A stretch of DNA of 64,000 bases, from NCBI RefSeq assembly GCF_003334405.1, contig NZ_QOWM01000006.1, one strand, 5' to 3'. A program made the translations under genes and the position numbers. The notes below the pieces were generated by a model that ran no database searches, was not told where the DNA came from, and was given only the letters and a program-made list of their open reading frames with translations. Numbering within the stretch: position 1 is the first letter of the stretch; every line of letters begins with the position of its first letter. Below are positions 21,348 to 61,154 of the stretch, piece by piece. The stretch is from Escherichia coli. GTDB lineage: Bacteria; Pseudomonadota; Gammaproteobacteria; Enterobacterales; Enterobacteriaceae.

Positions 21348-21530
21348 GCCGGATGCGCTTTGCTTATCCGGCCTACAAAATCGCAGCGTGTAGGCCTGAT
21401 AAGACGCGCCAGCGTCGCATCAGGCGTTGAATGCCGGATGCGCTTTGCTTATCCGGCCTACAAAATCGCAGCGTGTAGGCCAGATAAGACGCGTCAGCGT
21501 CGCATCAGGCGTTACATACCGGATGCGGCT
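21348..21530. repeat. BIME: two tandem ~85-bp units (each a pair of inverted REPs) plus a partial third REP
   Basis: Unit gccggatgcgctttgcttatccggcctacaaaatcgcagcgtgtaggcctgataagacgcgccagcgtcgcatcaggcgtt... repeated at 85-bp period. Confidence 0.75.
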
Positions 21531-30178: not shown

Positions 30179-30213
30179 TTTGCACCTCAAAAAAGAGTGG
30201 CAAAGGACTTGAG

Positions 30214-30306
30214 AAGGAGCCTCAAATCCCTTCGCCGGCGTTATCCGGATCAGGTTCGACGGGTATTTTCTCAGCGCACGCGTACGCGTGGCACCCCGTT
30301 GAGAAC
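30214..30306 (-). promoter_or_regulatory. sroA: TPP (THI-box) riboswitch in thiBPQ leader (sroA)
   Basis: Minus strand contains CUGAGA...ACCCGUCGAACCUGAUCCGGAUAACGCCGGCGAAGGGA, the conserved TPP aptamer core; boundaries approximate. Confidence 0.8.
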
Positions 30307-30341
30307 GGCGTTAGTGTAGTGATTTTGTTATCAACCAGCAA

Positions 30342-32052: not shown

Positions 32053-32291
32053 ATAATTCCTAACGATGAAGCAAGGGGGTGCCCCATGCGTCAGTTTTAT
32101 CAGCACTATTTTACCGCGACAGCGAAGTTGTGCTGGTTGCGTTGGTTAAGCGTCCCACAACGATTAACCATGCTTGAAGGACTGATGCAGTGGGATGACC
32201 GCAATTCTGAAAGTTGACTTGCCTGCATCATGTGTGACTGAGTATTGGTGTAAAATCACCCGCCAGCAGATTATACCTGCTGGTTTTTTTT
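32053..32291 (+). ncRNA. sgrS: SgrS dual-function small RNA (glucose-phosphate stress)
   Basis: Divergent from sgrR; contains the sgrT ORF; 3' end is hairpin ccagcagattatacctgctgg plus U8; 5' end approximate. Confidence 0.8.
32086..32217 (+). CDS. sgrT: SgrT 43-aa peptide (inhibitor of PtsG transport activity)
   Basis: MRQFYQHYFTATAKLCWLRWLSVPQRLTMLEGLMQWDDRNSES encoded within the sgrS transcript. Confidence 0.85.
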   Translation: MRQFYQHYFTATAKLCWLRWLSVPQRLTMLEGLMQWDDRNSES

Positions 32292-33545: not shown

Positions 33546-35562
<2,017 letters not shown>

Positions 35563-35564
35563 GA

Positions 35565-38227
<2,663 letters not shown>

Positions 38228-38269
38228 GGTTTGGGTCCTTGTCTCTTTTAGAGCGCCTCGCTTCGGGCA

Positions 38270-38302
38270 TAAAAAAACCCGCGCAATGGCGCGGGTTTTT
38301 TG
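38270..38302 (-). terminator. leu operon attenuator (intrinsic terminator between leuL and leuA)
   Basis: Minus strand cccgcgccattgcgcggg hairpin followed by TTTTTTT. Confidence 0.7.
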
Positions 38303-38319
38303 TTTGACTGCGTGCTGGC

Positions 38320-38406
38320 TTAATGCTGGATGCCGCTCACTCGTCTACCGCGCAAAGAAGATGCGTTTAGTAGTAGTAGACCGATAAAGCGAACGATGTG
38401 AGTCAT
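38320..38406 (-). CDS. leuL: leu operon leader peptide
   Basis: 28-aa [28 protein letters not shown] with four consecutive Leu codons upstream of the attenuator. Confidence 0.9.
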
Positions 38407-38589
38407 TAAATCAGCTCCAGATGAATGCGATATGCTTTTAGAGTTACTGGATACAAAAACGGATGTCAACCCTGACGCAATAAAAACGTCCCGCCAGCGT
38501 GAGTTCTGCATCCGTAAAATTAGCTAATTGTGCTGCGGTGGTTAAAGTAAGCGATATTAATTTCTGCTTAACTACCGACGCTTTTCATC

Positions 38590-39060
38590 GGTTGACATAT
38601 TTCAGCATAAATTTTTGCATCTAATCAACGAGGAAAAAGGGGACAAAATGCACGCGTTGCAAAACCTATCCTGATGATTTGTATTGAATTATATGTTTTG
38701 CGATTTTTTTTGATATTGATTTGGTGAATATTATTGATCAATTAATGTTAAGAATTAATGCATTAAATATATAAATTAATTATTAAATAAGCACATTTAA
38801 TCCATTTTGTAGATGATTGAGTATTCGCGGTAGTTATGATTAGATTGTTTTCGCAACAAAAACATTATGGATTATTATGCTGTGGTAAATGACTCATTCC
38901 ACGGCAATGGATTCTGTTTTTATCAGAACCCGTATCTTTATGTTTTCCGAATTTTACTCATTTTGCTTTTTCTTATTTTATATGCATGATAAATCATATT
39001 CTTCAGGATTATTTCTCTGCATTCCAATAAGGGAAAGGGAGTTAAGTGTGACAGTGGAGT
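38590..39060. promoter_or_regulatory. extremely AT-rich leuL-leuO intergenic block (leuO promoter region; likely H-NS/curved-DNA silencing region)
   Basis: Long runs such as ttaatgttaagaattaatgcattaaatatataaattaattattaaataag; function from established knowledge of the leuO locus. Confidence 0.5.
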
Positions 39061-39065
39061 TAAGT

Positions 39066-40010
39066 ATGCCAGAGGTACAAACAGATCATCCAGAGACGGC
39101 GGAGTTAAGCAAACCACAGCTACGCATGGTCGATCTCAACTTATTAACCGTTTTCGATGCCGTGATGCAGGAGCAAAACATTACTCGTGCCGCTCATGTT
39201 CTGGGAATGTCGCAACCTGCGGTCAGTAACGCTGTTGCACGCCTGAAGGTGATGTTTAATGACGAGCTTTTTGTTCGTTATGGCCGTGGTATTCAACCGA
39301 CTGCTCGCGCATTTCAACTTTTTGGTTCAGTTCGTCAGGCATTGCAACTAGTACAAAATGAATTGCCTGGTTCAGGTTTTGAACCCGCGAGCAGTGAACG
39401 TGTATTTCATCTTTGTGTTTGCAGCCCGTTAGACAGCATTCTGACCTCGCAGATTTATAATCACATTGAGCAGATTGCGCCAAATATACATGTTATGTTC
39501 AAGTCTTCATTAAATCAGAACACTGAACATCAGCTGCGTTATCAGGAAACGGAGTTTGTGATTAGTTATGAAGACTTCCATCGTCCTGAATTTACCAGCG
39601 TACCATTATTTAAAGATGAAATGGTGCTGGTAGCCAGCAAAAATCATCCAACAATTAAGGGCCCGTTACTGAAACATGATGTTTATAACGAACAACATGC
39701 GGCGGTTTCGCTCGATCGTTTCGCGTCATTTAGTCAACCTTGGTATGACACGGTAGATAAGCAAGCCAGTATCGCGTATCAGGGCATGGCAATGATGAGC
39801 GTACTTAGCGTGGTGTCGCAAACGCATTTGGTCGCTATTGCGCCGCGTTGGCTGGCTGAAGAGTTCGCTGAATCCTTAGAATTACAGGTATTACCGCTGC
39901 CGTTAAAACAAAACAGCAGAACCTGTTATCTCTCCTGGCATGAAGCTGCCGGGCGCGATAAAGGCCATCAGTGGATGGAAGAGCAATTAGTCTCAATTTG
40001 CAAACGCTAA
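39066..40010 (+). CDS. leuO: LysR-family transcriptional regulator LeuO
   Basis: 314-aa product [61 protein letters not shown]... with LysR HTH; track ORF trimmed. Confidence 0.92.
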
Positions 40011-57852: not shown

Positions 57853-58683
57853 ATGTCGCAGGCTGCTCTGAACACGCGAAACAGCGAAGAAGAGGTTTCT
57901 TCTCGCCGCAATAATGGAACGCGTCTGGCGGGGATCCTTTTCCTGCTGACCGTTTTAACGACAGTGTTGGTGAGCGGCTGGGTCGTGTTGGGCTGGATGG
58001 AAGATGCGCAACGCCTGCCGCTCTCAAAGCTGGTGTTGACCGGTGAACGCCATTACACACGTAATGACGATATCCGGCAGTCGATCCTGGCATTGGGTGA
58101 GCCGGGTACCTTTATGACCCAGGATGTCAACATCATCCAGACGCAAATAGAACAACGCCTGCCGTGGATTAAGCAGGTGAGCGTCAGAAAGCAGTGGCCT
58201 GATGAATTGAAGATTCATCTGGTTGAATATGTGCCGATTGCGCGGTGGAATGATCAACATATGGTAGACGCGGAAGGAAATACCTTCAGCGTGCCGCCAG
58301 AACGCACCAGCAAGCAGGTGCTTCCAATGCTGTATGGCCCGGAAGGCAGCGCCAATGAAGTGTTGCAGGGCTATCGCGAAATGGGGCAGATGCTGGCAAA
58401 GGACAGATTTACTCTGAAGGAAGCGGCGATGACCGCGCGGCGTTCCTGGCAGTTGACGCTGAATAACGATATTAAGCTCAATCTTGGCCGGGGCGATACG
58501 ATGAAACGTTTGGCTCGCTTTGTAGAACTTTATCCGGTTTTACAGCAGCAGGCGCAAACCGATGGCAAACGGATTAGCTACGTTGATTTGCGTTATGACT
58601 CTGGAGCGGCAGTAGGCTGGGCGCCCTTGCCGCCAGAGGAATCTACTCAGCAACAAAATCAGGCACAGGCAGAACAACAATGA
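57853..58683 (+). CDS. ftsQ: cell division protein FtsQ
   Basis: 276-aa bitopic ORF with POTRA-like region. Confidence 0.93.
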
Positions 58684-59942
58684 TCAAGGCGACGGACAGA
58701 AAACTGGTAGTAGGACTGGAGATTGGTACCGCGAAGGTTGCCGCTTTAGTAGGGGAAGTTCTGCCCGACGGTATGGTCAATATCATTGGCGTGGGCAGCT
58801 GCCCGTCGCGTGGTATGGATAAAGGCGGGGTGAACGACCTCGAATCCGTGGTCAAGTGCGTACAACGCGCCATTGACCAGGCAGAATTGATGGCAGATTG
58901 TCAGATCTCTTCGGTATATCTGGCGCTTTCTGGTAAGCACATCAGCTGCCAGAATGAAATTGGTATGGTGCCTATTTCTGAAGAAGAAGTGACGCAAGAA
59001 GATGTGGAAAACGTCGTCCATACCGCGAAATCGGTGCGTGTGCGCGATGAGCATCGTGTGCTGCATGTGATCCCGCAAGAGTATGCGATTGACTATCAGG
59101 AAGGGATCAAGAATCCGGTAGGACTTTCGGGCGTGCGGATGCAGGCAAAAGTGCACCTGATCACATGTCACAACGATATGGCGAAAAACATCGTCAAAGC
59201 GGTTGAACGTTGTGGGCTGAAAGTTGACCAACTGATATTTGCCGGACTGGCATCAAGTTATTCGGTATTGACGGAAGATGAACGTGAACTGGGTGTCTGC
59301 GTCGTCGATATCGGTGGTGGTACAATGGATATCGCCGTTTATACCGGTGGGGCATTGCGCCACACTAAGGTAATTCCTTATGCTGGCAATGTCGTGACCA
59401 GTGATATCGCTTACGCCTTTGGCACGCCGCCAAGCGACGCCGAAGCGATTAAAGTTCGCCACGGTTGTGCGCTGGGTTCCATCGTTGGAAAAGATGAGAG
59501 CGTGGAAGTGCCGAGCGTAGGTGGTCGTCCGCCACGGAGTCTGCAACGTCAGACACTGGCAGAGGTGATCGAGCCGCGCTATACCGAGCTGCTCAACCTG
59601 GTCAACGAAGAGATATTGCAGTTGCAGGAAAAGCTTCGCCAACAAGGGGTTAAACATCACCTGGCGGCAGGCATTGTATTAACCGGTGGCGCAGCGCAGA
59701 TCGAAGGTCTTGCAGCCTGTGCTCAGCGCGTGTTTCATACGCAAGTGCGTATCGGCGCGCCGCTGAACATTACCGGTTTAACGGATTATGCTCAGGAGCC
59801 GTATTATTCGACGGCGGTGGGATTGCTTCACTATGGGAAAGAGTCACATCTTAACGGTGAAGCTGAAGTAGAAAAACGTGTTACAGCATCAGTTGGCTCG
59901 TGGATCAAGCGACTCAATAGTTGGCTGCGAAAAGAGTTTTAA
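58680..59942 (+). CDS. ftsA: cell division protein FtsA (actin-like ATPase)
   Basis: 420-aa [34 protein letters not shown]... Confidence 0.95.
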
Positions 59943-60002
59943 TTTTTATGAGGCCGACGATGATTACGGCCTCAGGCGACAGGCACAAATCGGAGAGAAA
60001 CT

Positions 60003-61154
60003 ATGTTTGAACCAATGGAACTTACCAATGACGCGGTGATTAAAGTCATCGGCGTCGGCGGCGGCGGCGGTAATGCTGTTGAACACATGGTGCGCGAGCG
60101 CATTGAAGGTGTTGAATTCTTCGCGGTAAATACCGATGCACAAGCGCTGCGTAAAACAGCGGTTGGACAGACGATTCAAATCGGTAGCGGTATCACCAAA
60201 GGACTGGGCGCTGGCGCTAATCCAGAAGTTGGCCGCAATGCGGCTGATGAGGATCGCGATGCATTGCGTGCGGCGCTGGAAGGTGCAGACATGGTCTTTA
60301 TTGCTGCGGGTATGGGTGGTGGTACCGGTACAGGTGCAGCACCAGTCGTCGCTGAAGTGGCAAAAGATTTGGGTATCCTGACCGTTGCTGTCGTCACTAA
60401 GCCTTTCAACTTTGAAGGCAAGAAGCGTATGGCATTCGCGGAGCAGGGGATCACTGAACTGTCCAAGCATGTGGACTCTCTGATCACTATCCCGAACGAC
60501 AAACTGCTGAAAGTTCTGGGCCGCGGTATCTCCCTGCTGGATGCGTTTGGCGCAGCGAACGATGTACTGAAAGGCGCTGTGCAAGGTATCGCTGAACTGA
60601 TTACTCGTCCGGGTTTGATGAACGTGGACTTTGCAGACGTACGCACCGTAATGTCTGAGATGGGCTACGCAATGATGGGTTCTGGCGTGGCGAGCGGTGA
60701 AGACCGTGCGGAAGAAGCTGCTGAAATGGCTATCTCTTCTCCGCTGCTGGAAGATATCGACCTGTCTGGCGCGCGCGGCGTGCTGGTTAACATCACGGCG
60801 GGCTTCGACCTGCGTCTGGATGAGTTCGAAACGGTAGGTAACACCATCCGTGCATTTGCTTCCGACAACGCGACTGTGGTTATCGGTACTTCTCTTGACC
60901 CGGATATGAATGACGAGCTGCGCGTAACCGTTGTTGCGACAGGTATCGGCATGGACAAACGTCCTGAAATCACTCTGGTGACCAATAAGCAGGTTCAGCA
61001 GCCAGTGATGGATCGCTACCAGCAGCATGGGATGGCTCCGCTGACCCAGGAGCAGAAGCCGGTTGCTAAAGTCGTGAATGACAATGCGCCGCAAACTGCG
61101 AAAGAGCCGGATTATCTGGATATCCCAGCATTCCTGCGTAAGCAAGCTGATTAA
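60003..61154 (+). CDS. ftsZ: cell division GTPase FtsZ
   Basis: 383-aa ORF with tubulin signature GGGTGTG. Confidence 0.97.

Follow-up and report, generated by a model that had tools for sequence, protein, structure and literature searches.

The minus-strand DNA directly upstream of leuA is almost certainly the leader of the Escherichia coli leu operon, comprising the leader-peptide gene leuL and the ribosome-mediated transcription attenuator ahead of leuABCD. The element was recognized in a stretch of 64,000 nucleotides of E. coli DNA (hereafter the window), and both its RNA and its peptide belong to curated families. The RNA matched the Rfam family RF00512 (Leu_leader) over the entire model (positions 1-148 of 148; 38420-38271, minus strand) with 145.8 bits and E = 4.5e-32, the gathering threshold being 50 bits. 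The peptide matched the NCBIfam equivalog NF007397, 'leu operon leader peptide', over residues 1-28 of 28 with 80.9 bits, for a curated cutoff of 59 bits. Of 5426 complete E. coli genomes, 5400 carry the 501-nt region, annotated as leuL and leuA, with 100% identity in many of them, and RefSeq labels identical E. coli DNA as leuL (WP_001300467.1), leuA, and leuB. The leuL attenuator found here is the leu attenuator of E. coli itself, more than a relative of it, and an earlier note, made from the sequence, had rightly called it known. Every defining feature of an attenuator that is open to an in silico test was found, and the present analysis itself established the parts in the sequence, the mutual exclusivity of the computed structures, the family membership, and the conservation. 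The element is real, intact, and ordinary, and it holds nothing new. By tying transcription of leuABCD to the charging of a rare tRNA-Leu isoacceptor, the leu leader has been a textbook case since about 1980, and it serves here as a positive control, in which a cis-regulatory RNA outside the coding sequences was recognized from raw sequence to within a base.

The leader gene, its control codons, and its promoter

The leuA start codon lies at 38227, with leuB and leuC 3' of it on the same strand; the leader is flanked by leuO and ilvI on one side and, beyond leuA, by leuB on the other (Table 1). The leuL frame starts with an ATG at 38406-38404 and ends with a TAA at 38322-38320, and its minus-strand translation gives the 28-codon peptide exactly as first read in the earlier note. 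The four consecutive Leu codons that the note had singled out are codons 10-13, all of them CUA. With its Shine-Dalgarno sequence, start codon, in-frame run of Leu codons, and stop, the leader is predicted to be translatable, and a purine-rich GGAG or GAGG motif occupies the same Shine-Dalgarno position in the aligned relatives. CUA is the rarest Leu codon, accounting for 3.5% of Leu codons and for 3.7 per 1000 codons in the 32 window ORFs of at least 300 aa. The CUA run (CTACTACTACTA) occurs a single time in the 64 kb window, both strands considered, and the chance expectation of four consecutive CUA codons in a 28-codon ORF is about 5e-9. These data place the layout of ORF, codon run, and terminator well beyond chance. 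As summarized in PMC1183508, Carter et al. 1986 found that replacing CUA by CUG lowers the sensitivity to leucine limitation, and what PMC1183508 and PMC9291695 relay of Carter 1986 and Bartkus 1991 describes a dependence on leucine and tRNA in vivo for the E. coli and Salmonella elements.

Table 1. Features of the leu leader region and of the genes that follow it (window coordinates).
Feature	Position	Strand	Description and basis
-35 hexamer TTGACA, leuL promoter	38464..38469	-	sequence; invariant in 44 Enterobacterales upstream regions
-10-like TAACTC	38446-38441	-	17-nt spacer from TTGACA
Shine-Dalgarno GGAG	38415..38418	-	8 nt 5' of the leuL AUG; sequence
leuL leader peptide ORF	38320..38406	-	28 codons + UAA; translation, NF007397, RefSeq leuL annotation
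Control codons CUA x4 (codons 10-13)	38368..38379	-	proposed ribosome stall site when charged tRNA-Leu is scarce
Small protector/pause hairpin CGCA-UCUUCUU-UGCG	38351..38365	-	MFE fold; RNAalifold consensus
Antiterminator 5' strand ('preemptor') GCGCGG	38348..38353	-	codons 18-20 (uuG CGC GGu); stalled-ribosome folds
Probable RNA polymerase pause	38338..38339	-	U38339 = -1, G38338 = +1, G38348 = -10
Shared segment CCGCGC	38289..38294	-	pairs with 38353-38348 (antiterminator) or 38284-38279 (terminator)
Intrinsic terminator (attenuator)	38271..38301	-	13-bp stem AAAAAACCCGCGC/GCGCGGGUUUUUU, CAUU loop, U7 at 38277-38271
leuA (2-isopropylmalate synthase)	36656..38227	-	first regulated structural gene; ORF; RefSeq annotation
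leuB	35565-36659	-	ORF; RefSeq annotation
leuC	34162-35562	-	ORF

Two other frames were considered and rejected. The longer in-frame ORF 38511-38320 (63 aa) starts 5' of the conserved -35 and -10 elements, and relatives support the short ORF; the plus-strand ORF 38046-38387 (113 aa), antisense to the leuA start and to the leader, is unsupported.

Among the 44 aligned Enterobacterales upstream regions, the -10 region ('GTA.C' / TA.C..) is conserved along with the -35 hexamer. Judging from promoter spacing, leuL transcription would start near 38434, and the element would begin about 28 nt 5' of the ATG, not at the ATG as the earlier note had it. Its interval, 38270-38406, is correct for the ORF and the terminator but too short for the leader, whose Rfam match runs from 38420 and whose Shine-Dalgarno sequence lies at 38418-38415. 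With a start near 38434, the terminated leader would measure about 160 nt (38434-38271), which we take to agree with the published length of the leu leader. A consensus promoter and terminator scan reported neither the leuL promoter nor the leu attenuator terminator. The promoter was missed because the -10 element TAACTC fits the consensus at just two of six positions, and the terminator because A-U pairs carry the stem into the U run, leaving too few T. Since both of these known elements were missed, a negative result from a simple consensus scanner is weak evidence.

Several minor observations concern the DNA upstream of the leader. The leuO-leuL intergenic region (38625-38870) is very AT-rich. 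In the E. coli sequence NZ_CP060974.1, the match is confined to the DNA downstream of about 38510 and is accompanied by a second matching place, suggesting that the DNA between leuO and leuL (38511-38650, minus strand) has undergone an insertion or a rearrangement in that strain. The ORF overlapping leuO (38889-40010, plus strand) begins well 5' of LeuO as annotated (314 aa), which places the real leuO start inside the ORF. RefSeq also places a 14-codon 'hypothetical protein' between leuO and ilvI (L001 942-986).

Competing folds of the leader RNA

The terminator reads AAAAAACCCGCGC-CAUU-GCGCGGGUUUUUUU, with a core stem CCCGCGC/GCGCGGG, has a fold energy of -20.2 kcal/mol, and corresponds to the terminal helix of the RF00512 model. 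The GC-rich hairpin followed by U7 that the earlier note had reported is present at 38301-38271, with a U run of exactly 7 bases. Its placement 'immediately before leuA' holds in the sense of directly upstream but not of abutting, the terminator ending 43 nt 5' of the leuA ATG. In the free leader, the small protector hairpin is extended by pairing between CUACUAC (38381-38375), a strand made of the Leu codons, and GGUAGAC (38349-38343), plus outer helices; the large protector thus formed (38420-38308) has an energy of -35.5 kcal/mol, the inner hairpin one of -10.8 kcal/mol. The MFE fold of the free 170-nt leader combines protector and terminator (-56.8 kcal/mol), and the antiterminator is absent from it. 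Compared with dinucleotide shuffles, the leader fold has a z of -4.55, with 0 of 200 shuffles as stable.

Stalled ribosomes were represented by masking the footprint with the A site on codons 10-13, and the RNA 3' of the ribosome was folded up to the terminator loop, which corresponds to the state just ahead of the termination decision. For a stall at any of codons 10-13, the MFE fold (-19.9 kcal/mol) was closed by GCGCGG:CCGCGC. When the ribosome sat on codon 19 (Arg19) or on the stop codon, the fold held no antiterminator pairing and the terminator formed; at the stop, the inner protector hairpin re-formed behind the ribosome, sequestering GCGCGG. For stalls at codons 12 and 13, masked folds of the whole leader yielded pairing across the ribosome, which we consider physically implausible, and the 3'-only folds were used in their place. 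The antiterminator overlaps the 5' arm of the terminator by 6 nt and the 3' arm of the protector hairpin by 3 nt (GCG), so that protector, antiterminator, and terminator are pairwise exclusive. In these computed folds, both the mutual exclusivity and the ribosome-position dependence of the attenuator switch hold. The earlier note had named a lack of mutually exclusive antiterminator and terminator structures as grounds for refuting it; folding produced such structures, with protector and terminator in the free RNA and antiterminator upon a stall at codons 10-13. Together with the translatable Leu-run ORF, the terminator, and the matches to RF00512 and NF007397, these exclusive folds bear out its description of classic ribosome-mediated attenuation.

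When the 3' arm of the terminator was included, the terminator prevailed in the stalled-ribosome folds as well (-31.7 to -35.9 versus -19.9 kcal/mol). The terminator being thermodynamically preferred, antitermination must be kinetic, as in other attenuators, and we infer a kinetic competition between antiterminator and terminator. When the upstream leader was shuffled 2000 times, 180 of the shuffles (9%) formed a duplex with the terminator arm as strong as the antiterminator core (-12.6 kcal/mol); as this single-sequence test is non-significant, the case for the antiterminator rests on conservation.

The 50 nt from 38387 to 38338 (minus strand) are identical to the leuL pause context given in the supplement of PMC9291695, which ends at that position. 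This paper describes a consensus G-10 Y-1 G+1 pause at leuL, enhanced by NusA, and its supplement lists the pause hairpin, the same as the small protector hairpin of Table 1, at -4.2 kcal/mol; its account of Bartkus et al. 1991 likewise includes pausing at leuL. From the motif and the published context, the pause would fall exactly at U38339, about 12 nt 3' of the small hairpin, which is the geometry of a his-type hairpin pause. The leading edge of a ribosome at the Leu codons touches the 5' arm of this hairpin, a position that would fit the published idea of a ribosome freeing the paused polymerase. In PMC9291695, pausing was not restored by compensatory mutations, which leaves the function of the pause hairpin short of full proof.

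In the mechanism that we propose, transcription would begin about 28 nt 5' of the leuL AUG, the small CGCA/UGCG hairpin would form, and RNA polymerase would pause about 12 nt 3' of it until the translating ribosome arrives at the hairpin and frees the polymerase, thereby synchronizing transcription and translation. If the charged tRNA-Leu that reads CUA is scarce, the ribosome would stall on the four CUA codons, its footprint keeping the 5' half of the protector open and GCGCGG free. GCGCGG (38353-38348) could then pair with CCGCGC (38294-38289) once the latter is transcribed, and the antiterminator would take the 5' arm of the terminator, letting the polymerase pass U7 and read leuABCD. If leucine is ample, the ribosome would move on toward the stop, GCGCGG would be covered by the ribosome or recaptured in the local protector hairpin, and the terminator (-20 kcal/mol plus U7) would form, with transcription ending at about 38271 and a leader RNA of about 160 nt. 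For the pause-release step and for the leucine response in vivo, this scheme draws on deduction or on the literature.

Conservation across Enterobacterales and alternative readings

Eighty loci, one genome per species, were chosen solely for their similarity to LeuA residues 1-200. They come from Escherichia, Citrobacter, Salmonella, Klebsiella, Enterobacter, Pantoea, Erwinia, Pectobacterium, Dickeya, Serratia, Yersinia, Hafnia, Rahnella, Budvicia, Photorhabdus, and other genera. A short leader ORF with at least three adjacent Leu codons was found at all 79 loci having enough upstream DNA, and the conserved control runs consist of three or four Leu codons, mostly CUA. The MAFFT alignment of 78 distinct leaders has a mean column identity of 52%, and yet little or no variation is seen within it in GCGCGG (invariant in 77-78 of the 78 species), CCCGCGC, GCGCGGG, and the U tract. 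Arg19 is encoded by CGC in 77 of 78 leaders, whereas the Arg6 codon ends in C in 27 and in T in 48. Similarly, Gly20 is GGU in 74 of 78, whereas Gly9 has U as its third base in 42 and C in 31, and codon 18 ends in G in 78 of 78 with a variable first base. Synonymous sites frozen in codons 18-20 and free elsewhere are, as read from the alignment, the mark of a constraint at the RNA level.

Over the 78 leaders, the fraction of paired cells reaches 95.7% for the terminator, 97% for the inner protector, and 99.4% for the closing helix of the antiterminator. Compensatory change is seen in the protector alone, where columns 48 and 88, a pair next to the small hairpin, hold U-A in 39 sequences and C-G in 27, with U-A to C-G compensation counted in 30 sequences. 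Terminator and antiterminator display no covariation across the alignment because their core helices are invariant; support for them is thermodynamic and comes from conservation and published genetics, none from compensatory change. Conservation is poor in the outer helices of the protector (54-68% paired), for which we make no claim of conserved structure. When a stalled-ribosome fold was computed for each species, 77 of 78 leaders paired the 5' arm of the terminator with (G)CGCGG, a segment located 21-27 nt beyond the first Leu codon in the run; in the sole miss (L078), the arm-finding routine failed on a mismatched terminator. The most divergent leader (L080) keeps the pairing in a shifted register, CGUGGGU:ACCCGCG. 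The invariance of these segments probably reflects a three-way constraint, in which the middle segment must complement two partners.

Divergent leaders located about 200 nt 5' of leuA were observed in Budvicia (L072), Zophobihabitans (L070), Rosenbergiella (L053), and an uncultured Enterobacterales MAG (L080). They carry a Leu-run ORF made of CUC/CUU, not CUA, together with a terminator and a predicted antiterminator, and the control codon moves from CUA to CUC in these lineages. All four score below the RF00512 gathering threshold, so the coverage of this model is incomplete at the margins of the family.

The ORF and the hairpin could in principle lie together by chance, the hairpin being a constitutive or partial terminator or an mRNA-stabilizing stem and the short ORF being untranslated or non-regulatory. 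In favor of chance, 6.5 kb hold as many as 103 ORFs of 20 aa or more, and 9% of shuffles yield the antiterminator duplex, taken by itself. Chance does not, however, account for four identical rare CUA codons, unique in the window and expected at about 5e-9, nor for the conservation of ORF, Leu run, terminator, and GCGCGG 5' of leuA in 77-79 Enterobacterales species; with the strong curated matches of both RNA and peptide and a Shine-Dalgarno sequence at proper spacing, we regard it as exceedingly improbable. Equally little credence can be given to a ribosome-independent sensor of leuA, whether a T-box-like leader, a metabolite riboswitch, or an RNA-binding protein acting on the terminator or antiterminator. 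Alternative terminator and antiterminator folds also typify T-boxes, riboswitches, and protein-controlled leaders, and leucine biosynthesis is under T-box control in many Firmicutes. Yet Rfam, searched with the entire window at gathering thresholds, placed no T-box or riboswitch model at the leader, Leu_leader being the sole match there. Besides, such mechanisms have no need of a conserved Shine-Dalgarno sequence, start, in-frame Leu run, and stop, and it is the codon run itself that supplies the protector's 5' strand.

The ribosome-mediated attenuator, which is the reading we retain, might have an additional role in trans, exerted by the LeuL peptide or by the terminated leader RNA of about 160 nt, by analogy with the trp leader products of Sinorhizobium. 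Were this the case, the near-absolute invariance of CCCGCGC/GCGCGGG and GCGCGGU would reflect more than three-way pairing in cis. Precedents for trans-acting attenuator RNA and peptide exist (PMC6614838 and PMC7298713), and the C-terminal half of LeuL is fairly well conserved (LRGR.VG.). By contrast, the conservation of codons 18-20 reaches synonymous sites, which RNA pairing explains and the peptide does not, while other peptide residues vary freely; we consider a role in trans very unlikely.

Relation to other attenuators, and further RNA matches in the window

The leu leader and attenuator were reportedly described in the original work of Gemmill et al. in 1979, Keller and Calvo in 1979, Wessler and Calvo in 1981, Carter et al. 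in 1986, and Bartkus et al. in 1991. In comparison with leuL of E. coli K-12 and Salmonella Typhimurium, the peptide, the four CUA codons, the pause context, and the protector, preemptor, and terminator are all identical. The position, 5' of leuABCD and 3' of leuO, is also the same, and no difference is detectable.

The paradigm of ribosome-mediated attenuation is trpL. The E. coli trpL shares the logic of leuL, with an ORF carrying control codons, a pause hairpin, exclusive folds, and a kinetic decision that depends on where the ribosome is (PMC1183508). The sequences are unrelated, and trpL relies on two Trp codons whereas leuL relies on four CUA Leu codons read by a rare isoacceptor. Two points of anatomy set leuL apart from trpL: its control codons themselves make up one strand (5') of the protector, and the antiterminator's 5' strand precedes the stop codon. 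A ribosome at the leuL stop thus leaves GCGCGG uncovered, and the local protector hairpin must sequester it. Both anatomical differences belong to the classical description in terms of protector, preemptor, and terminator. The leaders ilvL/ivbL, thrL, hisL, and pheL are attenuators of the same leader-peptide class, with NusA-stabilized pause sites (PMC9291695), but they differ in control-codon composition, length, and Rfam family, the leuL region matching RF00512 alone.

Elsewhere in the window, Rfam matches were obtained for the SgrS sRNA (32065-32291, plus strand, 228.8 bits), for a TPP riboswitch (30209-30308, minus strand, 65.9 bits), and for naRNA4 (21393-21458, minus strand), the latter with 60.2 bits and barely over the threshold of 59.5. 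A full-length match to RF02797, 'PssrA, plasmid-encoded Shigella sRNA A', was found at 59922-60011 (plus strand, 105.5 bits), at the chromosomal ftsA-ftsZ junction between the ORFs 58680-59942 and 60003-61154. Of 5426 E. coli genomes, 5425 have the matching DNA annotated as ftsA/ftsZ. For a locus made up of the ftsA end and the 5' region of ftsZ, this family name misleads.
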